A DNA stretch of 64,000 nucleotides from a virus. Its lineage: Duplodnaviria > Caudoviricetes. Shown here piece after piece: positions 14,165 to 64,000 of this stretch. The translations under genes were made by a program, and so were the position numbers. The first letter of the stretch is position 1, and the number at the start of each line of letters is the position of its first letter. The notes under the pieces are model-generated. The model was not told the origin of the DNA, made no database searches, and saw only the letters and a list, made by a program, of their open reading frames with translations. Where the stretch lies: IMG/VR virus record IMGVR_UViG_3300005656_000005, positions 1 through 64,000 of that record; one strand, 5' to 3'.

Positions 14165-14172
14165 AAAATGTT

Positions 14173-48829: not shown

Positions 48830-48845
48830 TGGCTTTCATTTTTTA

Positions 48846-50117: not shown

Positions 50118-50142
50118 TTTGTTTTATTTTAAATGTAAAAAA

Positions 50143-50196
50143 TGGGCTGCATTACTATTGTCGTTCTACTTGAATTTGCCAATAATAATGCGCCCA
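50143..50196 (-). terminator. Long hairpin with U-tract (terminator or processing site)
   Basis: 17-bp stem with one bulge and one G-U pair on the minus strand, followed by TTTTTT. Confidence 0.6.
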
Positions 50197-50204
50197 CCTG
50201 AAAA

Positions 50205-50381
50205 CTATTTTTTCCCACTAAAACTCATGCGAACTGACGGCTTACCAAAGGAACTCATAGTGGCTGCTCTACCTGATGGAGTATAGCTTCCTTTAGATGC
50301 TTTAGCACTTGATTTCTTTGGAGAATAAGTGTTTCCTGATTTTTTGTTGCTGCCCATGCAGCCGGGGCCTCCCATACACAT
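50205..50381 (-). CDS. 58-aa basic K/S/G-rich protein (not in ORF track)
   Basis: MCMGGPGCMGSNKKSGNTYSPKK...VRMSFSGKK. Confidence 0.7.
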   Translation of the reverse strand: MCMGGPGCMGSNKKSGNTYSPKKSSAKASKGSYTPSGRAATMSSFGKPSVRMSFSGKK

Positions 50382-50399
50382 AATTGTAAATTTTAGTGG

Positions 50400-51341
50400 T
50401 TATGAAACTAATTCTTTTTCTTTAACTTTTTTTGTTGCATCTTTTCTTAAATCATCAAGCAGTAATTTCCCTGCCGGTGATGTTAAAAATTCAATGAAAT
50501 ACCTTTGTCTTTCCATCGGCGTATATTCACTTCCGATTGCTTTTAATTCAATCCAGTTTTCACCTTTTTTCTTTGCTACCTGGCCTTCAACTGCATCAAA
50601 AGACAATACTCCCCGTGAAACCAATGTGCCTACCAATACCTGCACTTCTTCATCAATGGTTGTATCTTCTTTTAAAATATCAGTCATGGCATCATCGGAT
50701 TCATCCATGTAATTCACCAATGCGTTCTGTGCTGCTTCTAAGCTGTCCGGTAATTCATAGAATGTACCGAAAATACGAATAAGCATATCCTGTGCCTGTT
50801 GCAGATTTAAGCCATCAATTTTGTTGGCGGCTTTCAGCCTGTCTTTAAACGCTTTGTTTTCACTTACCACTTCCACATTTTTATCGTACAATTTGAAACA
50901 TGGTCTTGGCACTTCCAAACAGGTTCCTTCAAAACCTTCCATCCACGGGCTTACTTCCAGGTATCTTTGTACGGCAGGGTTATCGGTGGTTAATGTATTG
51001 TGCCGGAATTTCCTGGCATCATATTCCATCTGTGTAAACTTTTCATTTGCCGGAATTTTTTCTTTTTCGATCTGTTCATCCTGATAAGGGGTATTGCTGT
51101 TCAGCTTTAACCTTATGGTTCGGTTCTGTCCTTTTTTCTCATTGGGTATTTTCTGCCCAAATGTTTTGCTTTTCGGATCGTAGTCAATAACCTTTTCTGC
51201 GTTATCCAGAAAGGTCATTTGTAGGTTTGGCTCCCATTGTGGAAGTGTGTTTAACCTTACCCTTTGGTGTTGATTTATCTGTTGATAAATTTGTGCTGTT
51301 GGATGCAGATGCTCCAATAGAACGTAAGTCTTTAATGCCAT
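50400..51341 (-). CDS. Conserved capsid-linked protein (crAss-like gene downstream of MCP)
   Basis: RTIRLKLNSNTPYQDEQ..., NPAVQRYLEVSPW pattern; position after MCP. Confidence 0.55.
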   Translation of the reverse strand: MALKTYVLLEHLHPTAQIYQQINQHQRVRLNTLPQWEPNLQMTFLDNAEKVIDYDPKSKTFGQKIPNEKKGQNRTIRLKLNSNTPYQDEQIEKEKIPANEKFTQMEYDARKFRHNTLTTDNPAVQRYLEVSPWMEGFEGTCLEVPRPCFKLYDKNVEVVSENKAFKDRLKAANKIDGLNLQQAQDMLIRIFGTFYELPDSLEAAQNALVNYMDESDDAMTDILKEDTTIDEEVQVLVGTLVSRGVLSFDAVEGQVAKKKGENWIELKAIGSEYTPMERQRYFIEFLTSPAGKLLLDDLRKDATKKVKEKELVS

Positions 51342-51413
51342 TTTGTTTTTGTTTTAAAAATTATGAACCAACTTTAAATTACGGGCTGATTCGATAACCG
51401 TTTTTATGTTTTT

Positions 51414-51466
51414 AAAAAGAGAGGGGGAAAGCCTTTTTTTCATACGCCAGCCCCCTTTTTCTCTTT
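51414..51466 (-). terminator. Terminator-like hairpin after major capsid gene
   Basis: GGGGG...CCCCC stem with flanking AGAG/CTCT and T run on minus strand. Confidence 0.55.
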
Positions 51467-51481
51467 TATTATTTACTTATT

Positions 51482-52903
51482 TTACAGGCCCATATAACCC
51501 CAAGTGTTCGGGCAATGTACCTCCTGCAAAAATCGACTTTTTATGCTCCACTCTTGCGTTTCGCAACCAGTGCCAAATGTATTCCTTACACCAAGTACAC
51601 CATTGCTATCTGTCATGTTATCCCAAACCCTTCCGTCCATTGATTTGAAATAAACAGTGGTCAGCATTTTGTTGCTGTAGCCATTGCAGGATGTAGTGAT
51701 TGAAGTACGGTTTACGGCTTCTGAATTGTTGCACATTGGAACGAAGATGGCTGAATTTTTAAATACCATGTTCGGGCCACCCAGTAACTTACCATTACTG
51801 AAAGTACATTCTTCATAGATATGAAGTGTCATACCTTCAACTTTGATACCGCAGTATTCCAGGTTAATCCATGCACAATCGTTCAATGGCCTTTCAGAAT
51901 ATTGCAGATTAGCAATACCTACTGAATTTGCCATGCGCTGCCATTGTGAGAATAAAACACCACCCGCAAAGATTGCGTATTCACGGCAAGCAATACCGGC
52001 TGCATCCAGATCCCTTTTCCATGCACGTATATCATCTGTTGTAATTTCAGATGTAGATGCAGGTTGGAATTTGATACCCCTTGCTTTGATGGCAGGAATG
52101 ATACCGAAATTAGGATTCAATAACCTTTCGTAATGCTTACGCATTTCAAAGTCCTTGTACATATCGGCAAGGGCTTTTGTCCACCACTTTTCGATTGTGT
52201 TACCGCAATCATCGGTGAATGGAATTTTAAGGTACTGGCATTTGTTTAAAGCATCACCGCAAAGTGTTCCTTTGTCACCAATGGTAATCATATTCAGATC
52301 ATATACGATTGGTAAATCATCGAAACGGAATTGCCCGGTAGGACAGGCACAATCGGCAATTTCAGAACCGGAAAGAACCAATAACTGATCTCCGGCTGTT
52401 ACTACCTGTGCTGCTCCTGATGTGTTGCGTAAACGCACTGTAATGGTTGTGTCATACCCTGTTGCATGGGTTACGGCAGTTACTACGGCAAGTTCACCGG
52501 ATGGGCTTAAAACGATTGTATTACCTACCTGTGGTAAGTAATAAACGCCACCTACAAACTGGTTTGCATTTGCAAGGGCTATGATGCCGGTTGCTGGATA
52601 TGCACCAATGGTTACGTTTGTTTTTACTGTGATCTGATGAAGCTGTGCATTGTTTTCGATCAAACTGTAAGCGGGGTAGCAATCGGTTTCAAAGTTCATA
52701 AAATCTTCTAACCAGGTACTCATGGTACATTGCTCGATAATATTACAGTTGTATGTTTCCTTGTAAATTTTGTCGGTGTGGATGCGGCCAGCGAAGGCGG
52801 CATCAAAAAAATCTTGTGCTACTGGGGTTCCGACTGTACCCGAAAAGTAGCCTTGCTGATAACCAAGTCCGTTAGGATTGTTGGTGGTTACGATAGCGGC
52901 CAT
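51482..52903 (-). CDS. Major capsid protein
   Basis: 473 aa directly after scaffold-like gene, high-expression codon style, followed by terminator; size matches crAss-like MCP. Confidence 0.8.
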   Translation of the reverse strand: MAAIVTTNNPNGLGYQQGYFSGTVGTPVAQDFFDAAFAGRIHTDKIYKETYNCNIIEQCTMSTWLEDFMNFETDCYPAYSLIENNAQLHQITVKTNVTIGAYPATGIIALANANQFVGGVYYLPQVGNTIVLSPSGELAVVTAVTHATGYDTTITVRLRNTSGAAQVVTAGDQLLVLSGSEIADCACPTGQFRFDDLPIVYDLNMITIGDKGTLCGDALNKCQYLKIPFTDDCGNTIEKWWTKALADMYKDFEMRKHYERLLNPNFGIIPAIKARGIKFQPASTSEITTDDIRAWKRDLDAAGIACREYAIFAGGVLFSQWQRMANSVGIANLQYSERPLNDCAWINLEYCGIKVEGMTLHIYEECTFSNGKLLGGPNMVFKNSAIFVPMCNNSEAVNRTSITTSCNGYSNKMLTTVYFKSMDGRVWDNMTDSNGVLGVRNTFGTGCETQEWSIKSRFLQEVHCPNTWGYMGL

Positions 52904-52947
52904 AATATTTTTAATTTAAAATGTTAGTAAATATTTTAAATTACTAC

Positions 52948-54114
52948 TTATCGCCCCGGATTAAATCTTTGTGGTTGCCCTGCTTTTACAATCTTTCCCG
53001 TACCCTTTGCTTTCTCGGCCTGTGAACTACCGCCCACACCAATAGACTTAGGGTCAACAAATGGAAACACCTTTTTAAATTCTTCAACCTGGCGTGTACC
53101 TCCTTCAAGGTATGCGGTTTTGGCTACTGAATCAAAGGCTTTTGATTTCAAAACAAGTTCGGCAATGTTCTGTAGATTTAATGAGCCGTCTGTTGCGTTA
53201 AATAATAATTCCTTCCTTTTAGCAATGTCCTTTAGGATGTCTTTTGCTTCGGCAACTACTGTTTCAGGGAACTCGTATGCAACCGGGGCTATTTCGGTGT
53301 CGTCCACCTTCCCCAATTCCAAGTTGATTTTACGTTCCAGTTTATTGAAGTGTTCCTCAACATTAGAGGTAAATTCACTTTCTTTCTTGGTGTAAAACTC
53401 CTTCGCTGTAAGTGCTTTTTTAAGATTATCTAAGGTGTCTTTTGCTTCTTCTTGTTTTTCTGCACCTATGGCTTCAAATTTCTTTTTGCCATAGTCAAAC
53501 TTTTTCTGTGCCAATTCCTTTTCCGTTTCATCTTCAATTGCATCAATCTCGGCTTGCTCCAGTTGATAATACCTTTCTTTCTGGATGGCTTTTATTTGTT
53601 CCGGGTCTGTTATACCGGCTTCTTTCAATTGTTGTGTGAGTGCTGCTACTGACAGTTCTGTAAGGTCTGATTCTGCAACTTGCTTTAACAGGGAAAATTG
53701 GGCAATGCTGCCACCGTTTTCAACATAGAGGTCAAGCATCCTTTTTTCAACTTCCTGTTGCTGCTTTACTTTTTGTTCATCGGTAAGTTCTGTTTTCTGT
53801 GGAAACCGTTTTTCGTATTCAGCCTTAATTTCATCATCGGTTAAAGGCTTTGTGGTGTCGGCAATTTGATTTCCTGTGGTGGCTGCTGCCTGTGTGCCTG
53901 TATCTGCTGCGGCAGCTTGTGTATTGGTGTCTGTGGCTTGTGCTGCTGTACCTGTATCGGCTGCTGCTGCTGGCTGCTGTTGGTTTGCTGCCCCTTCTAA
54001 ATTCGGTAAAGGATTGGCTTTAAAACTTGATACGGTTCCTGCTGAAACTATCTTTCCAGTTCCTTTATTTTCTGCATTTTCTGCTGTGGCTGCTGCCTGA
54101 TTTTCACCTTCCAT
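52948..54114 (-). CDS. Capsid scaffolding-like protein
   Basis: Acidic, low-complexity AAADTG N-terminus, long helical body, immediately upstream of MCP. Confidence 0.65.
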   Translation of the reverse strand: MEGENQAAATAENAENKGTGKIVSAGTVSSFKANPLPNLEGAANQQQPAAAADTGTAAQATDTNTQAAAADTGTQAAATTGNQIADTTKPLTDDEIKAEYEKRFPQKTELTDEQKVKQQQEVEKRMLDLYVENGGSIAQFSLLKQVAESDLTELSVAALTQQLKEAGITDPEQIKAIQKERYYQLEQAEIDAIEDETEKELAQKKFDYGKKKFEAIGAEKQEEAKDTLDNLKKALTAKEFYTKKESEFTSNVEEHFNKLERKINLELGKVDDTEIAPVAYEFPETVVAEAKDILKDIAKRKELLFNATDGSLNLQNIAELVLKSKAFDSVAKTAYLEGGTRQVEEFKKVFPFVDPKSIGVGGSSQAEKAKGTGKIVKAGQPQRFNPGR

Positions 54115-54214
54115 AAAATTAATTATTTCGTTATCGGTTAAATTTCCATATAAAATTATATATAAAATAGCCTAAAACTTTGTAGTGTAATATTTTTTAG
54201 GTATTTTTACTACC

Positions 54215-54397
54215 ATGACAGATTGCGAATTACTCCAAATGTTAGCAGACGGTTATACCGTAAAAGAAATCTTCAATGAAAAAGGTATCAATAAAAGAAC
54301 CTTAGAAAAGAGAATACTTATTCTAAGAAAAAGGTGTGATGCCGATACGGTTACAGAATTAGTAGTTAAATATTTCAGATTAAAATTAATAGAATAA
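54215..54397 (+). CDS. LuxR/GerE-type stand-alone HTH regulator
   Basis: LLQMLADGYTVKEI...INKRTLEKRILILRKR...TVTELV; only + strand gene in the late region. Confidence 0.8.
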   Translation: MTDCELLQMLADGYTVKEIFNEKGINKRTLEKRILILRKRCDADTVTELVVKYFRLKLIE

Positions 54398-54423
54398 CTA
54401 ACGCTAATAATAGCATTTAAAGA

Positions 54424-54765
54424 TTAATTCTGCAACTTAGTCAACCACCCTTTTTTATTCTCTTTTATTTCTTCTTTAAGGTTAGATTCTTTTTCAGGTG
54501 GTGCAAATCCCATTTCAATTAATACTTCCTCTGTCTGAATTTCTACGTCCTGTTTTTCTGCTATCTTTTTTTTAAGATATTTCATTAATGGCAATTCCCA
54601 TCTTGGAGGTAAAGGCCGTTTTGTATTTTCCTGCAACCCTCTTAATAAAACACTTCTACCTATGCCCACTTCTTTTTCAATTCTAAAAACAGGGATTCCG
54701 CTTTCAGAAACTAATTGTGAAATCAATGGAATGTTTGCAGGTTTCTTTTTTTTAGTCTTTTCCAT
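54424..54765 (-). CDS. Putative XRE-like HTH protein
   Basis: LVSESGIPVFRIEKEVGIGRSVL resembles an HTH. Confidence 0.5.
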   Translation of the reverse strand: MEKTKKKKPANIPLISQLVSESGIPVFRIEKEVGIGRSVLLRGLQENTKRPLPPRWELPLMKYLKKKIAEKQDVEIQTEEVLIEMGFAPPEKESNLKEEIKENKKGWLTKLQN

Positions 54766-55336
54766 AAATCGGTCTGCCTATAAGATGTGAACTATAATCA
54801 CAGGTCATAAAATTATTGTCGCTTTTACTTCCATCCTGGTAACAAACAAACTTGTCGCAGATCATGTATTTATGAATATTAGCGGTAAGCCCTAAATGCC
54901 TATCAAGATGAATTGATTCAGGTAAAGATAAATAGAAATCGTAAAATGATTCATGTACTATGTAAAGGGTTAAGCTACTGAATAAACTTGTTATCCTATT
55001 ATTTAAAATTGTTCCGGCATAAATCATAGCATGGTAGGTATGAAATTCATCTGGCATTTTTTCTAAAAAATAATCCCATGCAAGTTTGCCATCTGGTGAT
55101 TTAAAGAACAAAATATCATCCTCCGCAATACACACCATTTTGTACCCATTATCTTTTGCATCCTGTACGATTTGCCGGTGGGCTAAATGCACTCCACGTT
55201 TTCTATCGTGCCTATCAATTATACCCTCCCAAAATTTTATGTAAAACCCTTGTTCTTTTGCCTGTTGCTCTGCCTGTGATTTTCTTTCCTCCCGGTGCAT
55301 TAAATTAATCACATTTACTGGCAATTCTTCTGTCAT
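54752..55336 (-). CDS. Glycosyltransferase, GT25-like
   Basis: VINLMHREERK, GVHLAHRQI, IAEDDILF, HIDRH-like LDRHL. Confidence 0.8.
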   Translation of the reverse strand: MTEELPVNVINLMHREERKSQAEQQAKEQGFYIKFWEGIIDRHDRKRGVHLAHRQIVQDAKDNGYKMVCIAEDDILFFKSPDGKLAWDYFLEKMPDEFHTYHAMIYAGTILNNRITSLFSSLTLYIVHESFYDFYLSLPESIHLDRHLGLTANIHKYMICDKFVCYQDGSKSDNNFMTCDYSSHLIGRPIYGKD

Positions 55337-55406
55337 TTTTATATGTTTTACGTCACATTTTGTATTTGTGACAGCATCCTATTGTTTCCACACCTTACCA
55401 CACATC

Positions 55407-55461
55407 AAAGTACTATGTAGTTCAAAGCTAAACTAAGTATAAAGCACTATGTAGTTCAAAG
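55407..55461. repeat. 21-bp direct repeat x2
   Basis: AAAG(T/C)ACTATGTAGTTCAAAG at 55407 and 55441. Confidence 0.85.
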
Positions 55462-55465
55462 TACT

Positions 55466-55732
55466 TTACGATACATTGTTCTTTGGCTTTAAACTGTCTA
55501 TTTTACGGTTTATTTTTTCTATTATTTCATCGTACTCAACATCTGTAAAATCTTTTTCAAAGTACACTTGTAGTTTTGGGAATTTAATGTTATGGTTTGG
55601 GAAGCATAGCCAGTAATAATCAGGCATCATTTTATTGAACGCTTGTATTATTTCAGAAACTCCTTTTCGTTCACCGTTTGATTCATCAAACATGAAGTCA
55701 GGATAGTAGAATAGTGCTATTGGTTTTGCCAT
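55466..55732 (-). CDS. Hypothetical protein
   Basis: 88-aa ORF coupled to GT25. Confidence 0.65.
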   Translation of the reverse strand: MAKPIALFYYPDFMFDESNGERKGVSEIIQAFNKMMPDYYWLCFPNHNIKFPKLQVYFEKDFTDVEYDEIIEKINRKIDSLKPKNNVS

Positions 55733-56364
55733 TATCTGTCTTGTTTTAATTTTTTAACTTCCGATTCATACCTTGTTTCCAAAAACCTACTCCAATCTGT
55801 GAACGCTTTCCCTATGTCTGAATAATCAGGTTTTTGAGTGAACAGCATTGGGTATGAAATGAACACTTTTTTATTGGGTTGAAAATCCCTTACAAGGCAA
55901 TTATCTACCGGCTCATTTATTGTTTTACTACAAACAAATTCCATTGCTTTTTTTGAATATGCAGTAGCATGGGTAGCATACATAATTCTTACTGGCAATA
56001 GATTTTCAGAATGGAATTTTTGTAACCCTGATGCACAGTTACCACCCAAATAAAATAAAGCCCAATCTTCGGGTAGCTGATCTATGCACTTATCCATTGT
56101 TTCATTAAATGTTTGTGCATCTACAAGTGGTAAAATATCATCTTCAAAAACCAGGCATCTTTCACCACCGGCTGCAAGTACTTTTCTAAAATACCTTTGC
56201 ATACTATCTACTAATCCCTGGCATGGGAAATCAGGGTTATCGGTTGCCTTCCATAGTTGATAATTAACCCCAAATAGTTCCATAACTCCTTTTGCTGATT
56301 CTAACCTGTCAGTTCTTTTTTCAAGATTTATAAGGGCTATATGTTTAAAGTAATCATGCCACAT
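55732..56364 (-). CDS. Glycosyltransferase, GT25-like
   Basis: INLEKRTDR, CLVFEDD, WALFYLGG, YATHATAYS, TQKPDYSDI. Confidence 0.85.
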   Translation of the reverse strand: MWHDYFKHIALINLEKRTDRLESAKGVMELFGVNYQLWKATDNPDFPCQGLVDSMQRYFRKVLAAGGERCLVFEDDILPLVDAQTFNETMDKCIDQLPEDWALFYLGGNCASGLQKFHSENLLPVRIMYATHATAYSKKAMEFVCSKTINEPVDNCLVRDFQPNKKVFISYPMLFTQKPDYSDIGKAFTDWSRFLETRYESEVKKLKQDR

Positions 56365-57004
56365 TGCTTTTCTTATTTCGTTTTAGTAATTGATCTCCCC
56401 AACCCCAATGCTCATAAATAAATTCTTCTACAGGTTCATAATCGTACTTGGAAAGATATTCTTCGATCTCTGGTTTTAAAGCACACCCTTCATAAACTTC
56501 TTTTGTATTTGTTTCTAAATATATGGCATCGAAATTATTCAATAAGTCACCAGCACCTTTTAGAACAAATATCTCTGCCCCCTGCGTATCAATAGCAAGC
56601 AACCACCCATCTCCTATTTCTACACCAAGTTCTTTTAATACCGTTTGCAATGTTTTTGTTTTTGTTTCAAAGTGCCTAACATAAGAAACTTCTGGGTGCG
56701 CTGTTTTATGAAAACCAAGTTGCAAGTAAGATGAACTTTGACCTTCATTGTTTGAAACATTAAATACTACATCCTTCCCATCTACTTCTCCTAAACAGGC
56801 ATTAACACCTATCTGAAATGGATACGGTTTAAGGTTTTCTATAAGTTCATTATAAATTTCCTTTACCGCTTCAATCCATATTACTTTTTCAATTCCCAAA
56901 TCTGCATAGGCTTGTCTTTCTTGTCCACTGCTTGAACCGCAATGAACTATGCCTTTAATATTCAGGTTATGGCGTGGCAGTAAATCTTTAAATTCTATTA
57001 GCAT
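56354..57004 (-). CDS. FkbM-family methyltransferase
   Basis: IVHCG, WIEA, FNVSNNEGQSSS, IDTQGAE, YLETN. Confidence 0.85.
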   Translation of the reverse strand: MLIEFKDLLPRHNLNIKGIVHCGSSSGQERQAYADLGIEKVIWIEAVKEIYNELIENLKPYPFQIGVNACLGEVDGKDVVFNVSNNEGQSSSYLQLGFHKTAHPEVSYVRHFETKTKTLQTVLKELGVEIGDGWLLAIDTQGAEIFVLKGAGDLLNNFDAIYLETNTKEVYEGCALKPEIEEYLSKYDYEPVEEFIYEHWGWGDQLLKRNKKSNVA

Positions 57005-57005
57005 C

Positions 57006-57386
57006 TTATTTTATTTTTTTATAGATTTCAACAGTTAAGTAATCAATTAGGTAAGAATAGGCTTCATCACTTTCCTCTACTACCAATTTCATTCCTATTC
57101 TATCCATGACAAATGTTACTGCATGGAATATTTCGTGTTGTAAATTACCATAATCTTTAGGTGTGCCGGTAAATTTAACCAAACGTATTAATGTCTGATT
57201 TGTAGAAAACATTACCGTTCTCCCTTGCACCGTCTTGCTCGTTATTGTTGCCATAGATATATCATCGGCAGATAAATTGTACTTTTTAAAATGCTTATCT
57301 ATTTCTTCGTTAGTTTCCCCAAAAGAAACCATTACATCAAATGGATAAATAACTAATGGTATTATAAAATTTAATTTCTTTTTCAT
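57006..57386 (-). CDS. Phage protein with HExxH motif
   Basis: LQHEIFHAV...DEAYSYL. Confidence 0.6.
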   Translation of the reverse strand: MKKKLNFIIPLVIYPFDVMVSFGETNEEIDKHFKKYNLSADDISMATITSKTVQGRTVMFSTNQTLIRLVKFTGTPKDYGNLQHEIFHAVTFVMDRIGMKLVVEESDEAYSYLIDYLTVEIYKKIK

Positions 57387-57922
57387 TTTTTTATTATTAA
57401 AGCCCCGGCATCTTCCAATTTATTTTCAGGTATCAAATGTATTTCAAGGCCATTGGCTTCTGCAAATTCTTTTACTGCTTGCTTAACCCCGTATGCAGGA
57501 TTTTCATAATCGTGAAACGCCATTACTCCACCCGGAACTAATTTACTCCAATAGGCGGGTATATCCCCACTCACGCCTTCGTATGAATGATTACAGTCAA
57601 CGTATGCCAATCCCAATGTACCATCTTCAATGTAATCAGCCATTTCTACTGATAGTCCACGAAGTACTGTTACATTTTCTTTAAACGGTTCAATTCGTTT
57701 CATGGCATCGTCATAATTTTTATCATGCCAATCCTGGTGGTTGTTTCCATCTCCGGTTATTCCTAATATTTTACCCCAGTTATCAACCATGTATAATTTT
57801 TCTATGCCATTGGTTAAAAGTTCATGGGAGTTATACCCTTCTGCACATCCGATTTCTGCGGCTGTCTTTGGCAATCCTAACTGCTTTAAAAGACTTGGTA
57901 ATTCTCTCCTATAAGTTATCAT
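57383..57922 (-). CDS. Class I SAM methyltransferase (Methyltransf_24-like)
   Basis: AAEIGCAEG, YVDCNHSYEGV..D...W..LVPGG.MAFHDY; start set at MITYRR. Confidence 0.85.
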   Translation of the reverse strand: MITYRRELPSLLKQLGLPKTAAEIGCAEGYNSHELLTNGIEKLYMVDNWGKILGITGDGNNHQDWHDKNYDDAMKRIEPFKENVTVLRGLSVEMADYIEDGTLGLAYVDCNHSYEGVSGDIPAYWSKLVPGGVMAFHDYENPAYGVKQAVKEFAEANGLEIHLIPENKLEDAGALIIKK

Positions 57923-58562
57923 TTTCGTTTTTTTTATACTTGTTATAGATATAATCAAAAGTCTTTCCCCTTACTAAAGCGTTTTTTATATTCATAAATT
58001 TGGTATTTAATAAAATAGCCCAATCTTGAATACATAAATTAAGCCCATTATATTCAATATATACATTACTCCTTCTGTTTCTATTTTGATTGGGGCGTGT
58101 ATCCCATTTACAATTTTCAGGGCTATATTCTTTATCATTATCTACTCTCTCTAAAGTATGTTTTTCGCTTGGCTTATCGCCCATATCTAAAATAAAATTT
58201 TCAAAACTTGAAATCCATCTATCACATACAAATATTCCTCTCGCTCCGTAATCAGGATATTGTGGATGATTAGGTCGTCCACATCTTGCTTTCATATTAC
58301 ACCAAGCATTATATTCAGATGTTGTGAATGTTAATGTATGGTTGCCATGATGCGTATGAATCAATTTTGCCATTTCTCCTATTCCACAACCGCATGATTT
58401 AGTTAATCCCCTTTTTATATTTCTTGCAAATATATCTTTAACTTTTCCACAGTCACATAGGCATTTAAACTTTACTTCTTCCCCTTTTTGAAATGGCAAC
58501 AATTCTAATATAATTAATTTGCTAAATCTTTGTCCTACAAAATTAAAATAGTCTGGTTTCAT
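57909..58562 (-). CDS. HNH-type homing endonuclease-like protein
   Basis: GQRFSKL..CLCDCG..TKSCGC..WCNMKARC..YGARGIFVC..LERVDNDKEYSPENCKW. Confidence 0.85.
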   Translation of the reverse strand: MKPDYFNFVGQRFSKLIILELLPFQKGEEVKFKCLCDCGKVKDIFARNIKRGLTKSCGCGIGEMAKLIHTHHGNHTLTFTTSEYNAWCNMKARCGRPNHPQYPDYGARGIFVCDRWISSFENFILDMGDKPSEKHTLERVDNDKEYSPENCKWDTRPNQNRNRRSNVYIEYNGLNLCIQDWAILLNTKFMNIKNALVRGKTFDYIYNKYKKNENDNL

Positions 58563-58684
58563 AAAAACAAAATCCTGCAAACAGAAGGTAAATCACAATC
58601 AGTTTTAAGTGAAGGTGCATCTGCTTACAGGAATTTATCGTGAATAATTTCATAACTGAACTGTGATTTACAACACTAATATAG

Positions 58685-59476
58685 TTATTTTTTTAACTCG
58701 TGCCAATTAAAATTTAAAGGGTCAAAATCATCTATCTTATCGGTAAACCAATATATTGAATTTTCTTCGTTTCCATTAAGCCTTGCGAAGTTTGAGTATA
58801 TGGTCATTCCGGTTCCAATATTTGACATATTATCAATCTGCTTTGCCGAACCGCCAACAAAAGTAAAGCAGTTTAATTCAGGCTCTATAATGATACAGGC
58901 GTGATCTATACCTATGGAACGGTGCATAACACTATCCAACATATCCATTACCTTTTGAACCGATTCTCTTTTTATTATCCAGCAATGCGTACTGAAACAA
59001 CCCAGAACTCTTATCACTCTTGGGTCGTCTGTTAATTCTGCGTCCCTTCCAATATTGCTACCATTTAGCATATACCCATTCCCATTGTGCCAATGCGGGG
59101 GATTGCAGTGGAATAAAGCACCTCCAAAAAATATATCCCAATCGTGTGTTTCAAAAAACTTTTCCATGTAATCAATGCGTTCTTTGAAGTCAGTAGCCAT
59201 CACAACATCGTCCTCTAAAACGAAACAGTGCTTATTTTGTTTAATTGCTTCTACCATCATTTCCCGCATCCCCATCCAACATCCGACAGCACCAGGAGTT
59301 CGCCCAGCCATTACCTTAAACCTATGCTCGGTCATATCGTATTCTTCTGGCAACTTACCCCTTGTTCTTCCGGCAACTAAACCGACACGATATAATTCTT
59401 TTTCAATATGCTCCCTGCGGTCTAATCTTTGGTCAAGGTTTAAATAAGAAATGTAGCAATCATCAAGTAAACTCAT
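58685..59476 (-). CDS. Glycosyltransferase, GT25-like
   Basis: LNLDQRLDRR, GAVGCW, FVLEDD, WDIFFGG, FSTHCW, QIDNMSNI. Confidence 0.85.
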   Translation of the reverse strand: MSLLDDCYISYLNLDQRLDRREHIEKELYRVGLVAGRTRGKLPEEYDMTEHRFKVMAGRTPGAVGCWMGMREMMVEAIKQNKHCFVLEDDVVMATDFKERIDYMEKFFETHDWDIFFGGALFHCNPPHWHNGNGYMLNGSNIGRDAELTDDPRVIRVLGCFSTHCWIIKRESVQKVMDMLDSVMHRSIGIDHACIIIEPELNCFTFVGGSAKQIDNMSNIGTGMTIYSNFARLNGNEENSIYWFTDKIDDFDPLNFNWHELKK

Positions 59477-60195
59477 TGGATATAATTTTTAAATGCTGAA
59501 TAAACATTTTTAACTTCCGACTTTAATTTATCGGCTGCATTTGGATACCTGATATTAAACCTCCCCCTCCATTCTGCATCAATTGGTTCACGTAATCTTT
59601 CAGGTAATGAAATTATGTAATCATCCGTTATGGTAGAATAATTATGTGGGTAAAGGGTTTTTAATTTAATAAATATTTCATGAATAGAAGGCCATTCTGT
59701 AGGGTTAAGCGGTGCAGGTGGTTGTCCTAAAAATAAACGGGCATCATCAATGATTATTATTGCATCTGCCTGATACCTTGCTATTGCATCCAGTTCTTCC
59801 ATTAATGGACATTCTGAAAATTGACTTTGGTTTGGTTCGGGATCGCTGTAATGCGAATCAATAAAAAACATGGCATAGTTATAAACCGGAACATCCTTAT
59901 CCGGCTGTGGTATCTTATTTTTTTCTGCAATTAAACCATCAATTATTTTTGGTAACAGATCAACGGTGTGTCCGGTAAGCCATGTTACGTTTTCAATGGT
60001 TTCATCTATTACTGCACGATTTTCTATTAACTCAATTGTTATTACTTTTTCAAAATGCTTTGCAGCTATTCTTGTACTATCTCCACCGGCTGTACCACAC
60101 TCCACTAATGTTGGTATCTCTACATAGTGTATAAGATGATTAATCAAATACATCGGTATGCCGCCAGTATTAACCCCATTTAACTCGTATCCCAT
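59473..60195 (-). CDS. SAM methyltransferase-like protein
   Basis: LVECGTAGG, TIEL, FFIDSH, IIIDDARLF. Confidence 0.7.
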   Translation of the reverse strand: MGYELNGVNTGGIPMYLINHLIHYVEIPTLVECGTAGGDSTRIAAKHFEKVITIELIENRAVIDETIENVTWLTGHTVDLLPKIIDGLIAEKNKIPQPDKDVPVYNYAMFFIDSHYSDPEPNQSQFSECPLMEELDAIARYQADAIIIIDDARLFLGQPPAPLNPTEWPSIHEIFIKLKTLYPHNYSTITDDYIISLPERLREPIDAEWRGRFNIRYPNAADKLKSEVKNVYSAFKNYIQ

Positions 60196-60206
60196 AATTT
60201 ATGTTT

Positions 60207-60890
60207 TTATATTTTTACCCATTTTTTATTGCTGACTATTGTATGTGCAATAATTGGTTCAGGAAAAAGAATTTCAATTGGTGTTGGTACATAATCTTCA
60301 TGCAACAAATCATTTCTTATAAAAACAGCGTCAAGTTCAGCTACGGTATAAACTAATGTATATCCTTTCCTACTCATAATTCTGTTTAATGCTAACAGGC
60401 TTGCCCCATAATAGTCGTCCCCCGCCCACTTATGTTGAGAATCGTATTCAATAGCGTAGCTTTCATCGTTTGAGAACTTAGAATTAAATTCAGTTATTAC
60501 CACCTTTGGCTTAATCTTAATAGCATTAAGTATGTACGCTTCATTCCCATCAATATCCACAGACAGCAAGTCCAATTCAAACACTTTGTACATTGAAAAT
60601 ATCCGGTTGATGTTATGGGCTGTTATAAACTCTTTTTCAACTATAGGAGATAAGGGTTCTGTATCCATAAGCAGCCCTCTCCACCCTTTATTTAAACGCA
60701 GATGTGCGGTGTTAGATAGTTCAACCCCATCCCTTGCTCCGAACTCCACAAATGTTCCTTTCTTAATTCCAAACTGACTAAATATTAATTCCAAAATACC
60801 GTCCTGCCCTTTTTGGGAATACACACTTCTTTCGGCTATGCTTAATTGGTATGGGCTTAAATTAAATTTCATTTTTACAGTTTTATCCAT
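60207..60890 (-). CDS. FkbM-like methyltransferase
   Basis: YSQKGQDG, FVEFGARDG..SNT, LLSVDIDGNE. Confidence 0.8.
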   Translation of the reverse strand: MDKTVKMKFNLSPYQLSIAERSVYSQKGQDGILELIFSQFGIKKGTFVEFGARDGVELSNTAHLRLNKGWRGLLMDTEPLSPIVEKEFITAHNINRIFSMYKVFELDLLSVDIDGNEAYILNAIKIKPKVVITEFNSKFSNDESYAIEYDSQHKWAGDDYYGASLLALNRIMSRKGYTLVYTVAELDAVFIRNDLLHEDYVPTPIEILFPEPIIAHTIVSNKKWVKI

Positions 60891-61630
60891 GTGTCAGGAA
60901 TAATGTCTTTGGTATCAGCACCTCCCCATCCCGCTTGGAACCATAGTTCTTGTGTAATAATTACTTTATCATGGTTACGATTAATATAGGACGACCACCA
61001 TGAAAAAGTACTACTGCTGTTTATATTTGAGTGGCAGCAACTAATCTCTATAAAGTCCTGCATAATATCGCTGTTGGTGCTGTACTCAAAATTATACAGA
61101 TGCCCGAATTTATTTTGAAAATAATTTAGATCATCTGAAAATACTTTAAACCTTGTAATGCCTGTTTTTTCTGTTATCAATGCCATTGCTTTTGTAAGGT
61201 ATGGTTCATCTACTAAGATGTGCTTACCTGCTATGGTGAGATAATCCCCAAATCTTGCCTGTATAGAACAAACATCTGGTATCAATTCCCAACGCAAATT
61301 AAAAGATTCAATCATTTCATCTTTATAGTCTTTGAAATAAAGTTCTGATTGAAAATATCCTTGTAAGGTAATGTTATTGTTTCTCCAGGATTCATCAAAA
61401 GGGATTTCATCATAATGGAAGTTTTTTTCTTTTACTACTATTGCCGGTATCCCTGCGTTATAGGTTGGGTCTTGAAGGTGTTTTAAATAAATTGGCGACC
61501 AGAACTCATTGCTTGTTCTTGTCGGTACGCTGAACTTTAACCCGTGTTTTTTTGCATACGCAAATGCTGCTGCACAAGTGAAAAAGAAATTACCTGCTCT
61601 ACCTGCCGGGATAAAAGATACATGGCTCAT
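60875..61630 (-). CDS. Alpha-1,2-fucosyltransferase-like (GT11)
   Basis: GRAGN, LQGYFQSELYF, QARFGDY, FSDD, SSTFSWW. Confidence 0.9.
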   Translation of the reverse strand: MSHVSFIPAGRAGNFFFTCAAAFAYAKKHGLKFSVPTRTSNEFWSPIYLKHLQDPTYNAGIPAIVVKEKNFHYDEIPFDESWRNNNITLQGYFQSELYFKDYKDEMIESFNLRWELIPDVCSIQARFGDYLTIAGKHILVDEPYLTKAMALITEKTGITRFKVFSDDLNYFQNKFGHLYNFEYSTNSDIMQDFIEISCCHSNINSSSTFSWWSSYINRNHDKVIITQELWFQAGWGGADTKDIIPDTWIKL

Positions 61631-61640
61631 AGTTATTCGT

Positions 61641-62627
61641 TTATTTGTTTGTTTTTTGTACCTCTGAATTAACCCAATTATACAGGCGTGTAATTCCCTG
61701 AATTAAAGGTTTTGATGGCGACCAATTTAAAACTGTTTCACAAAGTTCATTATTACTATTTCTGCCTCTTACACCCTGCACACCTTCGACATTTTTTATT
61801 GTAAGGTTTTTGCCCGAAATATCAATTATCATTTGTGCAAGATTATTAATTGAAATGAGTTCTGAACTTCCAATATTTATCGGGTTTGTATAGTCGCTAT
61901 CTAACAGCCTTAATACGCCTTCAATTGCTTCGTCAATGTATAAGAAACTTCGTACAGCCTGACCATCTCCCCATACGTCTATTTCGTCACCATCTTTAGC
62001 CATTGCAACTTTACGGGATAATGAGGCCGGGGCTTTGGCTCTTATTCCGTCATAGGTGGTAAATTCACCAAATACATTATGAAAACGGGCAACCCTGATA
62101 TTTAATCCTTTATTCCTGTAAAAGGAATCATATAGACATTCGCTAAAAAGTTTTTCTATTCCGTATGCACTTTCCGGTCTGCTATGCCAAACCATATCTT
62201 CGGACAAAGAAACATTATCAGTACCCATTTGGAATTTTTCAGAATAAGCACAAGCTGATGAACTCCAAAATATTTTTTTAATTTTAAATAGTGAAGCATA
62301 GTGTGCCACATTCAAATTTAATAATGCTGAATCATACATTATTTCTGAATCATTTTCACCTGTGGCTAAAAATCCCATTCCTCCCATAGAAGCACTATAC
62401 TGAAAGCAAACATCGAATGAATCATTGCTTGTATAAAACATCACTTTTGAAGCCTCTAAGGAATCCCTTAAATCACAAAATATATTTTCATCTGCCGGTG
62501 ATTCGGTAAACTCATTTTTTTTAATGTCAACACATCTTACCCAATACCCTAATTCTTTTAACTTGATAACTGTGTTAATTCCAAGAAATCCTTGTCCTCC
62601 AAAAACTATTGCCGTTTTTTGTTTCAT
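61641..62627 (-). CDS. NAD-dependent epimerase, GDP-mannose 3,5-epimerase-like
   Basis: GGQGFLG, ASMGGMGF, SSSACAY, YGIEK, RFHNVFG, KAPASLSRKV. Confidence 0.85.
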   Translation of the reverse strand: MKQKTAIVFGGQGFLGINTVIKLKELGYWVRCVDIKKNEFTESPADENIFCDLRDSLEASKVMFYTSNDSFDVCFQYSASMGGMGFLATGENDSEIMYDSALLNLNVAHYASLFKIKKIFWSSSACAYSEKFQMGTDNVSLSEDMVWHSRPESAYGIEKLFSECLYDSFYRNKGLNIRVARFHNVFGEFTTYDGIRAKAPASLSRKVAMAKDGDEIDVWGDGQAVRSFLYIDEAIEGVLRLLDSDYTNPINIGSSELISINNLAQMIIDISGKNLTIKNVEGVQGVRGRNSNNELCETVLNWSPSKPLIQGITRLYNWVNSEVQKTNK

Positions 62628-63040
62628 ATTATTTTATTTATTATTAAAAATCTTCTGTGAACTGGATGTGTTTTTGTGGGTATTGATTCATAAAATTTCC
62701 CGTTCTTAGGAACTTGGTTTACCGATACCGAAAACACAAGTGAAACAGTATGCCTTTTATTCCCTTTTTGTACCTCTCTTGGGAACTCCATAAATCCTAA
62801 CAATTTTGGAACGTAAACCCGTATCCCCATTTCTTCTTTTGCTATTCTGTTTATTGCTGAACCTATGCTTTCTCTGAATCTTATCCTACCTCCGGGCAAA
62901 TGCCACTTTCCTTTATATGGCTCAATATCCCTTTTTATCAAAAATACTTCACCTGCTTCAACCAATAAAATATCCACACATACCCTTGTTGACTTTGAGT
63001 AAATAAAGTTATAGTCTTTATCGGATAAATAGCCACTCAT
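62624..63040 (-). CDS. Nudix hydrolase (GDP-mannose hydrolase-like)
   Basis: EPYKGKWHLPGGRIRFRESI...AKEEMG. Confidence 0.85.
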   Translation of the reverse strand: MSGYLSDKDYNFIYSKSTRVCVDILLVEAGEVFLIKRDIEPYKGKWHLPGGRIRFRESIGSAINRIAKEEMGIRVYVPKLLGFMEFPREVQKGNKRHTVSLVFSVSVNQVPKNGKFYESIPTKTHPVHRRFLIINKII

Positions 63041-63759
63041 TTTAGTTGTTTTATTTTATCTAATATTGATTGATGAAATCCTGGTGGTGTTCGGCTGACA
63101 TTGTTTTGATAATGGCTACCTGAATGAACACGGTGAAAGTACTGTAATCCCTGTACTATTTTTATTTTTTTACCAGACCGGAGCCAGTTGTAACAAACAT
63201 AGATTGAATCGGAAGTAACCGGGTTTACTGTACCATCCCAATTGTGTAGGTAGTTTTCCCTGTTGACAAAGTAGTTTGCCGCATTTAAACAGGTTTCAAA
63301 CATGGGTTTATCAATCCACTCATTTACATTTTCTTTTGAAATTAACAGGGCTGAATACCCTCTGAAATCAAAGTTTGGCATTGCATATTCGGGAGTGTAA
63401 ATTGTGTCTGCATCCCATTCAGTTATTTCAAATATTCTATCCAGATAATCGGTATCAATGACATTATCTGAATCCAGCAAAATACAAAATGGTTGCTTGG
63501 CCCCAAATACTGCTGTTCTTTTGTTGAAGTAACAATCTTGATTGGAAAGGTTACGGCTTAAAGTTATCTTATTGCCATAAGACTGATTTAAAACATCAAT
63601 AATTGTTTTTACCTGTTTAAATATTTCAAGATCGCTGGCATCATCTGAAATATAAATATCCGATATTCTTTCATCGGCAATAACCTTGCTGAAACTTTCT
63701 ACTAAAACATCAACCCGGTTATATGTCGGGATTACAAGTGAAATTTTTCTATCTTCCAT
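63037..63759 (-). CDS. Glycosyltransferase family 2
   Basis: SLVIPTYNR, SDDAS, LLDSDN DxD motif. Confidence 0.85.
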   Translation of the reverse strand: MEDRKISLVIPTYNRVDVLVESFSKVIADERISDIYISDDASDLEIFKQVKTIIDVLNQSYGNKITLSRNLSNQDCYFNKRTAVFGAKQPFCILLDSDNVIDTDYLDRIFEITEWDADTIYTPEYAMPNFDFRGYSALLISKENVNEWIDKPMFETCLNAANYFVNRENYLHNWDGTVNPVTSDSIYVCYNWLRSGKKIKIVQGLQYFHRVHSGSHYQNNVSRTPPGFHQSILDKIKQLK

Positions 63760-64000
63760 TTAGCTGTTTTACTCGTTTATTAAATTTTTTTATTGCGTTC
63801 TTTTTATTTAGTGCTGATACATAAACACAACCTGTTTTAATCAATACCTTTTTTACTATACCGGCATCAGCTTTATTTATTCTTGTGGGTAATAAGGCAT
63901 CTACCTTTTCATATTCTGCAAGTTCTATATCTCCTGTTTGCGTATTTATTTGAAATAAGACATGGCCTCTTTGTGGTGTAATGGTTCCCAGCTTCTTTAA
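63749..64000 (-). CDS. Partial hypothetical phage protein (5' end outside window)
   Basis: Open frame ...GHVLFQINTQTGDIELAEY...ALNKKNAIKKF..., stop at 63749. Confidence 0.55.
   Translation of the reverse strand, partial: LKKLGTITPQRGHVLFQINTQTGDIELAEYEKVDALLPTRINKADAGIVKKVLIKTGCVYVSALNKKNAIKKFNKRVKQLNGR

Follow-up and report, generated by a model that had tools for sequence, protein, structure and literature searches.

What would a tailed phage build with a large set of glycan genes kept beside its head genes, and onto which acceptor would the product be placed? The window, that is the whole stretch of DNA analysed (64,000 nt), comes from an uncultured phage of activated-sludge Bacteroidota in a podovirus-like clade of ~77-96 kb; the record measures 77 kb and is about 74% complete. 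We found that positions 54424-63759 hold 16 tightly packed, co-directional genes on the minus strand, covering about 9 kb beside the head genes: three GT25-like, one GT11 and one GT2 glycosyltransferase, four SAM methyltransferase-like proteins, a GDP-mannose 3,5-epimerase (GME), a Nudix hydrolase, an HNH homing endonuclease, a small HExxH protein and two small unknown genes (Table 1). The answer that we tentatively prefer is a phage-encoded glycan-tailoring module, working in the host cytoplasm, that most likely decorates the phage's own particle.

Table 1. Features of the glycan module, in the order of transcription.
Feature	Position	Strand	Evidence and remarks
GT2-family (GT-A) glycosyltransferase, 240 aa	63037..63759	-	Pfam Glycos_transf_2 E 3e-8, 34.2 bits (cut-off 23.3)
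Nudix hydrolase, 138 aa	62624..63040	-	Pfam NUDIX E 2.3e-11
GDP-mannose 3,5-epimerase (GME)	61641..62627	-	Pfam Epimerase E 7e-29
GT11-family (alpha-1,2-fucosyltransferase-like) glycosyltransferase, 251 aa	60875..61630	-	Pfam Glyco_transf_11 E 3.7e-16; phrog_2644 E 4e-29
FkbM-like methyltransferase, 227 aa (weak assignment)	60207..60890	-	Pfam Methyltransf_21 E 0.001, 19.7 bits (under the 22.7 cut-off)
Class I SAM methyltransferase-like protein, 240 aa	59473..60195	-	Lead from Atlas structural neighbours; GxGxG-type motif
GT25-family glycosyltransferase, 263 aa	58685..59476	-	Pfam Glyco_transf_25 E 1.9e-8, 34.8 bits (cut-off 24; above gathering threshold); phrog_2835 glucosyltransferase E 3.7e-7; EDD motif
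HNH homing endonuclease, 223 aa	57909..58580	-	phrog_374 E 5e-60
Methyltransf_24/TylF-like O-methyltransferase, 191 aa	57383..57958	-	Pfam Methyltransf_24 E 1.6e-15, TylF E 0.004
HExxH protein, 126 aa	57006..57386	-	phrog_1365 (unknown function) E 4e-13
FkbM-family methyltransferase, 216 aa	56354..57004	-	Pfam Methyltransf_21 E 1e-12; TIGR01444 E 1.9e-13
GT25-like glycosyltransferase, 210 aa	55732..56364	-	Pfam Glyco_transf_25 E 0.003 (below cut-off); FEDD motif
88-aa protein	55466..55732	-	Orthologue in relative L030 (56% identical), placed between its two GT25-like genes
Intergenic region	55337..55465	-	Upstream of 194-aa gene; two 21-nt direct repeats, 34 nt apart (55407-55427 and 55441-55461; 95% identical; repeat search, family D4)
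Clade-specific GT25-like GT-A glycosyltransferase, 194 aa	54752..55336	-	Pfam GT25 E 0.006 (below cut-off); fold search
113-aa basic protein	54424..54765	-	Last gene of the unit; helix-turn-helix-like by eye

All the glycan genes named by a first-pass annotation were recovered on the minus strand where it had placed them, by Pfam, PHROG and fold evidence, as were the phage-type HNH and HExxH genes interleaved with them. Its limits of the unit required adjustment: the start given as 54752 moves to 54424, through the 113-aa gene that overlaps the last glycosyltransferase gene by 14 nt, and at the other end, where more genes had been thought possible beyond 64000, the ORFs past 63759, to about 65380 of the record, gave no family match. 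The genes are co-directional and overlap as in a translationally coupled operon, but the series described as one operon is interrupted at 55337-55465 and 58581-58684 by intergenic gaps that each exceed 100 nt. Between the module and the scaffold gene lies a 309-nt gap with a 60-aa ORF on the opposite strand.

Upon examining the enzymes, we observed the usual acidic motif in four of the five GT-A/GT11-type transferases. The GT2 gene, the first recognisable gene of the module, had no tblastn match among deposited phages. The GT11 donor motif is non-canonical, reading QARFGD against HVRRGD/HVRRTD in the L030 orthologue and the gene of cyanophage S-SCSM1. The two GT25 calls below cut-off are strengthened by the GT-A fold of the 194-aa protein and by matches to its family profile, which finds the orthologues of both other GT25-like proteins, the L030 orthologue of the 210-aa protein at E 4e-13. 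Judged from sequence, the four methyltransferase-like proteins are predicted to belong to the FkbM/TylF type that O-methylates sugars. Most modules of the relatives also contain FkbM genes (L005, L008, L020 and L024; Pfam), the 227-aa protein has a motif-I-like GxxDG stretch in its translation, and the TylF-like protein has distant homologues in cyanophages and mycobacteriophages. The 240-aa methyltransferase-like protein matched nothing in Pfam, PHROG or NCBIfam, and its Atlas neighbours (TM 0.66-0.73) comprise a class I SAM methyltransferase cluster, FkbM proteins and a GT2-containing long protein. Furthermore, the GDP-sugar branch proposed earlier is real, and its epimerase is a GME, as the protein aligns with Arabidopsis GME 2c59 (phmmer E 6e-74, residues 8-326; next family 1e-18) with conserved equivalents of the catalytic Cys145, Tyr174, Lys178 and Lys217. 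The Nudix protein is possibly a GDP-sugar hydrolase, a substrate read from context only; its phmmer match in the PDB to GDP-mannose mannosyl hydrolase 1rya (E 6e-7) is level with those to MutT-type entries.

The 194-aa GT25-like enzyme is the conserved anchor of the module. Its gene lies upstream of the scaffold and major capsid protein (MCP) genes in 9-10 related loci, and its 39 homologues are all metagenome-only, several apparently sharing contigs with MCP homologues (matched by size). Across 34 sequences E72-D73-D74 and H143/D145/R146 are invariant, and the divergence of the family (32-52% identity) is about that of the scaffold protein (30-51%). The AF2 model has a GT-A fold (pLDDT 94), for which Foldseek returned from the PDB a GT25 beta-1,4-GalT (8xlz), Mimivirus R655 (9crz), human COLGALT1 (9evj) and PBCV-1 A64R (2p72). 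The last three are protein- or capsid-glycosylating enzymes, R655 being a collagen glucosyltransferase (PMC9546862). Numerous GT25 proteins of phages and giant viruses lie close to it in structure as well, and one relative is fused to PLOD collagen-GT domains.

When comparing related phages, we find a glycosyltransferase/methyltransferase module at the same position in all six relatives with enough upstream sequence (L005, L008, L011, L020, L024 and L030), each with GT2, FkbM, TylF, Methyltransf_24 or epimerase genes upstream of scaffold and MCP, and each with a different gene content. The L030 module is syntenic with that of the window, with orthologues of the GT2 (53% identical, same position), 263-aa GT25 (50%), TylF-like (50%), FkbM (64%, tblastn) and 210-aa GT25-like (73%) proteins; this synteny and the recurrence in many independent metagenomes indicate an arrangement beyond chance. 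Half or more of the sampled words were present in at least 13 activated-sludge runs, and the module was present at 99% identity or more in all four runs compared in detail. Within single samples its contig depth is four- to tenfold below that of identical head genes, so the module looks like a strain-variable island.

Which acceptor could such a module serve? Flippase, polymerase, ABC permease and initiating transferase were not found in the 77-kb record, which likewise contains no Bac_transf match, no multi-pass membrane ORF above 200 aa and no integrase, and the module enzymes (about a dozen) are all predicted to be soluble. The first-pass annotation had noted the absence of export and initiating genes and had concluded that this is not a standard capsule locus; both statements hold across the record, and the second applies to O-antigen loci as well. 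The acceptor that the module extends or caps must therefore come from another source, and without an integrase in the record the stable seroconversion of a lysogen is unlikely. The first-pass annotation had named four acceptors (capsid protein, host O-glycan precursor, host LPS and modified DNA) with no preference among them. Here, virion proteins are tentatively favoured over host envelope glycans, a somewhat weaker candidate, and over DNA, a far weaker one.

[quoted passage not shown] Extension would then fall to the variable GT25, GT11 and GT2 enzymes and capping of the hydroxyls to the methyltransferases; the product would be a short, methylated oligosaccharide, different from strain to strain. 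The modification of virion proteins could be direct and cytoplasmic, as it is in chloroviruses, Megavirinae and some actinophages; in an indirect route, the enzymes would edit a host lipid-linked O-glycan that is then transferred to the phage's signal-peptide-bearing fibre proteins. Three signal-peptide-like proteins (11575-17031) hold 17 D-[ST]-[AILVMT] sites against 7.0 expected, which speaks for the indirect route, while in MCP and portal-size proteins such sites are at or under expectation. Virus-encoded sets of soluble glycosyltransferases and methyltransferases decorate the virions of chloroviruses (PMC5408694, PMC7826918) and, from clade-specific clusters, of Megavirinae (PMC10117803); cytoplasmic GT-A enzymes (PBCV-1 A64R and A111/114R among them) and sugar methyltransferases make methylated virion glycans there (see also PMC9614988). 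Those are eukaryotic giant viruses, with which the similarity is at the level of fold only (11-15% identity). Soluble glycosyltransferases and an O-methyltransferase are likewise described as decorating virion proteins of actinobacteriophages (Che8, Corndog, Myrna), shown there and proposed here (Freeman et al. 2023, Cell Host Microbe, as cited in PMC13313380 and PMC12801897); the present module, far larger, makes a nucleotide sugar of its own. No homology to mycobacteriophage glycosylation genes was found, except one weak methyltransferase match in an unrelated context, whose neighbours are not glycosyltransferases. Several observations count against a virion acceptor: MCP is conserved through its last C-terminal residue and ends in no variable Ser/Thr-rich tail; the structural proteins have no collagen-like or mucin-like stretch; and HxRRxD, the canonical motif, is missing from the GT11 copy. 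Additionally, in relatives small opposite-strand genes separate the module from the head genes, so the module is a separate transcription unit and its adjacency to the head genes is weak evidence for a virion acceptor.

Classically, GT2, GT11 and GT25 enzymes serve LPS/LOS and O-antigen synthesis on lipid-linked acceptors, as the Pfam descriptions also have it, which speaks against the virion and for remodelling of the host envelope, a possible reading if not the one we prefer. Here the soluble enzymes, working on the cytoplasmic side of the membrane, would modify undecaprenyl-linked O-antigen, capsule or general O-glycan precursors or lipid A-core, adding L-galactose or fucose-type residues and methyl caps; host flippase and ligase would export the product, and the altered surface would block superinfection and stop progeny from sticking to debris. 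Missing export genes are expected if the host supplies them, and a strain-variable module beside identical head genes would suit a phage whose strains meet hosts of different glycotypes. For GME, GT11 and FkbM, the nearest homologues in deposited phages lie in clusters of T4-like cyanomyoviruses (Synechococcus phage S-SCSM1 ORF113-135, P-SSM2, S-SM2), the closest deposited analogues, which the literature reads as putative modifiers of the host cell wall (PMC9602691, PMC12801897). Those phages are already published with the gene families seen here, GME (47% identical to the annotated S-SCSM1 protein), GT11, GT25 and other glycosyltransferases, FkbM and other methyltransferases (PMC9602691); there too the enzymes are all soluble, the annotation of the 19-kb S-SCSM1 stretch examined lists no export genes, and function is putative in both. 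The cyanophage clusters, however, include GMD and fucose synthase genes and occupy hyperplastic regions in myovirus genomes of 170-250 kb, and S-SCSM1 has its GDP-mannose Nudix hydrolase elsewhere in the genome, whereas here the module is fixed beside the head operon with a clade-specific anchor gene, GME is the sole sugar-nucleotide enzyme and the Nudix gene lies inside. Classic seroconverting systems (GtrABC, O-acetyltransferases such as Oac, Wzy-type polymerases) are alike in that phage genes alter a glycan, but they are membrane proteins of temperate phages acting after export, and neither membrane protein nor integrase is seen here. The metagenome-only distribution of the anchor homologues, several apparently on MCP-bearing contigs, also argues against the host envelope, as does the age of the anchor, which equals that of the head module and is not what a host gene of recent capture would show; moreover, 9 kb kept in a seemingly virulent clade is a large investment for a transient surface change.

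We consider it unlikely that the module makes another product, such as a free or lipid-bound methylated oligosaccharide serving as decoy, signalling glycolipid or defence inhibitor, or is a largely dispensable hyperplastic region kept by homing endonucleases. Mobile elements do occur throughout (HNH in the window, GIY-YIG in L011 and L024, an IS1595 transposase in L005), gene content changes with every relative and the GT11 motif is degenerate; against this, all six relatives retain such a module, the catalytic motif of the anchor is invariant and the genes overlap. DNA hypermodification, in which GT-A enzymes would glycosylate modified bases against restriction as in T-even or TET-associated glycosyltransferase systems, is highly improbable. 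Three of the 34 anchor-family members weakly match the TET-associated glycosyltransferase PF20691 (best E 2e-4), but 11 match GT25 and GT25 enzymes top the fold search. The DNA option of the earlier annotation is further weakened by the absence of thymidylate-synthase-like hydroxymethylase, TET/JBP dioxygenase and C5 DNA methylase from the 77-kb record, although precursor genes could be in its missing part. No role in DNA modification is known for GDP-sugar epimerase, GT11 or FkbM/TylF-type sugar O-methyltransferases, and five transferases with four methyltransferases far exceed the needs of any known DNA glycosylation. Finally, bacterial glycan genes mis-assembled onto a phage contig, or host contamination, suggested by nothing more than the bacterial character of these enzymes' families, can be ruled out with near certainty, since contigs from independent studies cross the head-gene/module junction without differences (in run X5 a single 22.6-kb contig covers 48000-55888 with none), G+C (0.33-0.36) and strand skew match those of the flanks, phage homing endonucleases are interleaved, and L030 is syntenic, while five further relatives have analogous modules in the same location.

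Regarding the smaller genes, the HNH endonuclease is a mobile insertion and not a pathway enzyme, with homologues at different positions in relatives and none within the L030 module. The Nudix gene has no counterpart in that module either, and the HExxH protein, which has no Pfam match, has no L030 homologue, i.e. it is inserted relative to L030. The 88-aa protein gave no family match in Pfam or PHROG and the 113-aa protein none; homologues of the latter lie on the opposite strand in L005, L006, L024 and L030. The N-terminus of the HExxH protein is borderline hydrophobic.

The gene inventory proposed in the first-pass annotation is borne out by Pfam, which recovers GT2, Nudix, epimerase, GT11, FkbM, GT25 and Methyltransf_24/TylF genes together with two sub-threshold GT25-like glycosyltransferases (GTs), and the phage-type genes described as interleaved with them are indeed an HNH homing endonuclease and an HExxH protein. 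An NCBIfam search of the module returned nothing beyond FkbM, and the Atlas neighbours of the 240-aa methyltransferase-like protein are class I SAM/FkbM-type domains. Adjacent genes touch or overlap nearly everywhere, and just two gaps are above 100 nt; because a scan for promoter and terminator consensus sequences was at chance level (53 vs 51.9 expected; 12 vs 10.0), operon boundaries are drawn from gene spacing only. Four ORFs upstream of GT2 (to ~65380) have no family match and the 5' limit therefore stands, while the 3' end gains a 113-aa gene. The cluster as first described is confirmed and extended; its interpretation, in which the enzymes extend or cap an existing acceptor on capsid, exported fibres, host envelope or DNA, holds in part. 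All module enzymes are predicted to be soluble (maximum 19-residue hydropathy < 1.5). Across the whole 77-kb record, we find no match to the initiating transferase PF02397 (Bac_transf), no ORF above 165 aa with at least three TM-like segments, and no multi-pass membrane protein fit for a flippase, polymerase, permease or Gtr-type enzyme, in agreement with the initial statement that flippase, polymerase, exporter and initiating transferase are absent. A Wzx/Wzy- or ABC-dependent polysaccharide locus was rejected, there being neither PF02397 nor a multi-TM ORF in the 77 kb.

Genes of the glycan module and neighbouring or reference genes, with positions in the window and basis of assignment
Feature	Position	Strand	Basis
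GT2	63037-63759	-	Pfam
Nudix	62624-63040	-	Pfam
NAD epimerase (GME)	61641-62627	-	Pfam
GT11	60875-61630	-	Pfam
FkbM, weak	60207-60890	-	Pfam
240-aa methyltransferase-like	59473-60195	-	no family match; SAM-binding-type glycine motif
GT25	58685-59476	-	Pfam
HNH homing endonuclease	57909-58580	-	phrog_374, E 5e-60
Methyltransf_24/TylF	57383-57958	-	Pfam
HExxH protein, 126 aa			phrog_1365, uncharacterised phage family
FkbM	56354-57004	-	Pfam
GT25-like, sub-threshold	55732-56364	-	Pfam
GT25-like 194-aa, sub-threshold	54752-55336	-	Pfam
113-aa gene, 3' end of unit	54424-54765	-	no family match; helix-turn-helix-like by eye
60-aa ORF between 113-aa gene and scaffold gene	54215-54397	+	no family match; helix-turn-helix-like by eye
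Scaffold candidate, 388 aa	52948-54114		upstream of capsid candidate; charged coiled-coil composition
Major capsid protein candidate, 473 aa	51482-52903		size, position, conservation
Large terminase	17444-19444		distant relatives, ~23% identical, in podophages of Flavobacterium, Cellulophaga and Tenacibaculum

Next, we examined the GDP-sugar branch. The epimerase matches Arabidopsis GDP-mannose 3,5-epimerase (GME) over its full length (2c59, E 6e-74; 8sg0, E 4e-71), the next family following at 1.6e-18. In the HMMER alignment to 2c59 the equivalents of the Cys145/Lys217 acid-base pair and of Tyr174/Lys178, which we take to be the catalytic residues of the Arabidopsis enzyme, are all conserved. 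We assign the protein on these grounds as a GME, whose product should be GDP-L-galactose, with GDP-L-gulose as the predicted second product. The Nudix protein resembles MutT-type proteins at least as closely as it does GDP-mannose mannosyl hydrolase, and its putative role in GDP-sugar metabolism comes from gene context. GT11 scores 59.7 bits against a PF01531 threshold of 23.9 and by this score is assigned as a true member of its family. The conserved HxRRxD donor-binding motif is missing from it, the window reading QARFGD where the related locus L030 has HVRRGD and cyanophage S-SCSM1 HVRRTD, and its activity or donor specificity may be altered: it may use another donor, for example GDP-L-galactose, or be impaired. 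Both the intact GME and a GT11 whose donor motif departs from the usual one could be of use in glyco-engineering.

Near the head-proximal end of the module lies the 194-aa GT25-like protein. The GT25 gene passes the PF01755 gathering threshold (34.8 against 24 bits), whereas the 194-aa protein (17 bits) and the second GT25-like protein (17.8 bits) fall below it; 11 of 34 members of the 194-aa family match PF01755, at best with E 2.5e-5. An AF2 model built from the 34 homologues (pLDDT 94) has as its top Foldseek matches the GT25 beta-1,4-GalT 8xlz/8xkd, COLGALT1 (9evj) and Mimivirus R655, with PBCV-1 A64R also among the best solved structural neighbours, and its neighbours among viral models are GT25 proteins from phages and giant viruses. 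Together with an EDD and an HxDR motif invariant in all 34 sequences, the predicted fold identifies the protein as a GT-A enzyme. Homologues of the family are metagenomic only, several of them on contigs equal in size to those bearing the capsid gene; one contig of 96,076 bp encodes a protein identical to the 194-aa one. The protein has diverged about as much as the scaffold protein, and correlating the pairwise identities of capsid, scaffold and GT25-like proteins gave no useful signal (r 0.27 and 0.57 over 21 non-independent pairs). An exhaustive profile search places 197 clusters in the wider family at E ≤ 1e-30 and 1044 at E ≤ 1e-10, nearly all of them stand-alone proteins of ~190 aa. A word-index search for longer fused forms found none; the exhaustive search returned a single one, the 1646-aa metagenomic multi-GT protein P0228. 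In it, three PLOD-type collagen GT domains occur alongside multiple copies of the GT25-like domain, and it could originate from a giant virus or a eukaryote.

We then compared the module across relatives, comprising 34 loci obtained from a metagenome scan with an alignment of the major capsid protein (MCP) and searched by tblastn and with the family profile. The 194-aa gene lies just upstream of the scaffold and MCP genes in L005, L006, L011, L015, L019, L020, L022, L024 and L030, and L018 has a fragment of it. Synteny between L030 and the window extends over ten genes (GT2, GME, GT11, methyltransferase (MT), GT25, Methyltransf_24, FkbM, GT25-like, an 88-aa gene and the 194-aa gene). L030 lacks Nudix, HNH and HExxH and carries one MT in place of the window's two, so that HNH and HExxH are insertions and not parts of the pathway. 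Among the loci with enough upstream DNA to be compared, L011 carries a short epimerase, TylF-like, Methyltransf_24 and Methyltransf_23 MTs and a GT2-DUF5672 fusion; L020 two GT2 and one FkbM; L008 GT2 and FkbM without the 194-aa gene; L005 GT2, TylF, FkbM and an IS1595 transposase; and L024 FkbM and a GIY-YIG endonuclease. Such differing GT and MT sets at one position indicate that a predicted soluble GT and MT module beside the head genes is a property of the clade, that its content is fluid and that mobile endonucleases are frequent there. The mobile genes within these modules, an IS1595-family transposase (E 2.5e-41) and GIY-YIG endonucleases, lie at L005:3388-4308, L011:7948-8505 and L024:348-1250, and HNH homologues occur at varied positions around the MCP gene in 11 or more loci; it may be mobile nucleases that shuffle the modules. 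Additionally, homologues of the 113-aa gene are on the opposite strand in L005, L006, L024 and L030, and the gene has therefore been inverted in the window's lineage. Together with the 60-aa ORF it is a possible regulator at the boundary between module and head operon. Two 21-nt direct repeats, AAAG[T/C]ACTATGTAGTTCAAAG, 34 nt apart at 55407-55461, lie within the 129 nt that separate the conserved 194-aa gene from its upstream neighbour and may be an operator or promoter element.

Contigs from four activated-sludge runs of different studies were compared with the window over 48000-64000, contig depth being a coarse figure. In run X5, a single 22.6-kb contig with a word depth of 37.8 spans 48000-55888 with zero differences, bridging the head genes, the 194-aa and 88-aa genes and part of the next GT, and the subsequent contigs, still matching the window, have a depth of 8.8 and then 3-6. 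In run X6, a contig of depth 35.7 stops at 54812 and the module contigs have a depth of 12 and then ~5, while run X4 is flat at ~5-6. Furthermore, several loose contig ends inside the module continue into dissimilar sequence. The pattern of X5 and X6 would be expected if, in most genomes, the same head genes stood next to a different version of the module and the breakpoints varied from sample to sample. Depth and bridging thus mark the module as a strain-variable island and refute the assembly chimera with host DNA that had been raised at the outset, the probability of which is now negligible. Module swapping beside identical head genes is a sign of diversifying selection, as for tail fibres or bacterial O-antigen loci, so that an effect of the module on host range, defence or particle survival is probable.

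The IMG/VR record is 77,238 bp long and an estimated 74% complete, the window being its first 64 kb, and nearly all genes from ~72.4 kb down to 8.9 kb are on the minus strand. The terminase relatives, a Ferruginibacter MAG bin that includes a contig with one MCP relative, and the presence of the window sequence in many activated-sludge metagenomes together make a wastewater Bacteroidota host likely. The 473-aa protein, with more than 260 metagenomic homologues, is the probable MCP, and the 388-aa protein looks like a scaffold. A tblastn search of deposited phages found no match to either, and at sequence level the PDB holds none to the MCP profile. Three scans of viral contigs, one each with the scaffold protein, the MCP and an MCP alignment as query, yielded no confirmed relative, and a PHROGs search of the head-region proteins gave no match.

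Among deposited phages, the best homologues of GME (47% identity), GT11 and FkbM are found in T4-like cyanomyoviruses of Synechococcus and Prochlorococcus. In the annotation of S-SCSM1, GME clusters with GMD, fucose synthase, an alpha-1,2-fucosyltransferase, several other GTs and MTs; the published account also lists a GDP-mannose Nudix hydrolase and interprets the set as cell-wall modification genes, without experiments (PMC9602691), a reading likewise made without experiments for cyanophages elsewhere (PMC12801897). Experiments have tied soluble GT and MT sets to virion glycans in chloroviruses (PMC5408694, PMC7826918), in Megavirinae, where the clusters are clade-specific (PMC10117803), and, according to Freeman 2023 as cited in PMC13313380 and PMC12801897, in actinophages. 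A tblastn search of 50,697 phage records with GT25, GT25-like, GT2 and FkbM gave no mycobacteriophage match; the Methyltransf_24 gene alone matches mycobacteriophage O-methyltransferases (E ~1e-6). A mycobacteriophage link was rejected, the sole match being an MT beside hypothetical genes in phage Mitti, in a non-GT context. The toolkit is that of cyanophage glycan clusters, the placement that of phage virion-glycosylation cassettes, and the phage clade is new, abundant and uncultured. What is notable in the module is a predicted self-supplied GDP-L-galactose branch, a clade-specific anchor GT and probable module swapping between strains.

Our leading reading, held tentatively, is that the module decorates the virion, directly or through a host pathway. 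Indirect points in its favour are the position beside the head operon, which is the same throughout the clade; an anchor enzyme that is old and clade-specific and whose modelled fold has protein- and capsid-glycosylating enzymes among its neighbours; by analogy, the experimental precedent in other viruses; and the lack of an integrase (PF00589) in the ~74% complete record. To our knowledge, phage virion glycosylation has so far been shown experimentally only in a few actinophages. If the module coats the particle, an uncultured, abundant clade of Bacteroidota phages from wastewater and freshwater would join the phages with glycosylated virions, and the tenth of the genome spent on sugar chemistry would be explained. 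The MCP C-terminus is invariant, which counts against a Che8-like capsid tail; neither collagen-like repeats nor a mucin-like Ser/Thr tract occur in the structural proteins, and the N-termini of scaffold homologues are of low complexity and not consistently Ser/Thr-rich. Three consecutive proteins of 124, 748 and 952 aa (11575-17031) have signal-peptide-like N-termini and hold 17 D-[ST]-[AILVMT] sites, the Bacteroidota-type O-glycosylation sequon, where shuffled sequences predict 7.0; in the MCP, the portal-size protein and the giant proteins the count equals the prediction or falls below it. This excess keeps open an indirect route by which host lipid-linked O-glycan is edited and then placed on exported fibres. 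We give little credence to this hijacking of the general O-glycosylation of a Bacteroidota host to coat the phage's own fibres or tailspikes. Cytoplasmic phage enzymes would rewrite the lipid-linked glycan into a phage-specific, methylated, L-galactose-containing form, and host machinery would flip it and attach it to the sequon-rich, Sec-exported fibre or tailspike proteins; module swapping would in that case change, from strain to strain, the glycans that coat the receptor-binding apparatus. We know of no description of a virus that uses a bacterial periplasmic pathway to glycosylate components of its virion.

Remodelling of the host envelope, a possible if somewhat doubtful alternative to virion decoration, is favoured by the LPS-type GT families, by the literature reading of the cyanophage clusters, and by the module being a separate transcription unit in relatives, set off by opposite-strand genes. 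Seroconverting temperate phages of the Gtr/Oac type differ in using membrane-embedded enzymes and lysogeny, whereas the module here has no membrane enzymes. That the genes serve some other product or form a dispensable region is unlikely. Glycosylation of DNA is very improbable: the TAGT family PF20691 is weakly matched by 3 of the 34 members of the 194-aa family (best E 2e-4) and about a quarter of the genome lies outside the record, but GT25 is matched by 11 of the same 34, PF00303 (ThyA), PF12851 (TET/JBP) and PF00145 (C5-methylase) are all absent from the 77-kb record, and a GDP-sugar epimerase, GT11 and sugar-type O-methyltransferases misfit DNA chemistry.

Finally, we observe several minor features around the head genes. 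A G+C-rich strong hairpin with a T run directly follows the MCP gene (51342-51481) and resembles a terminator or attenuator behind what is presumably the late gene with the highest expression, and an A-rich leader, TTTAAAAyAAAAC, just 5' of the start codon is common to several late genes. Small unannotated Lys/Ser/Thr-rich ORFs lie on the minus strand in the structural-gene gaps 47450-47708 and 50118-50399, for example one of ~78 aa at ~47455-47690. An exact 18-nt repeat, TTCCGCTTTCAGAAACTA, occurs at 47535-47552 and 54697-54714, and in two runs from different studies contig sequence identical to 47505-47534 is joined onto 54696 onward, a junction that would remove the whole head-gene block (~7.2 kb) and may represent a defective variant or a mapping effect.
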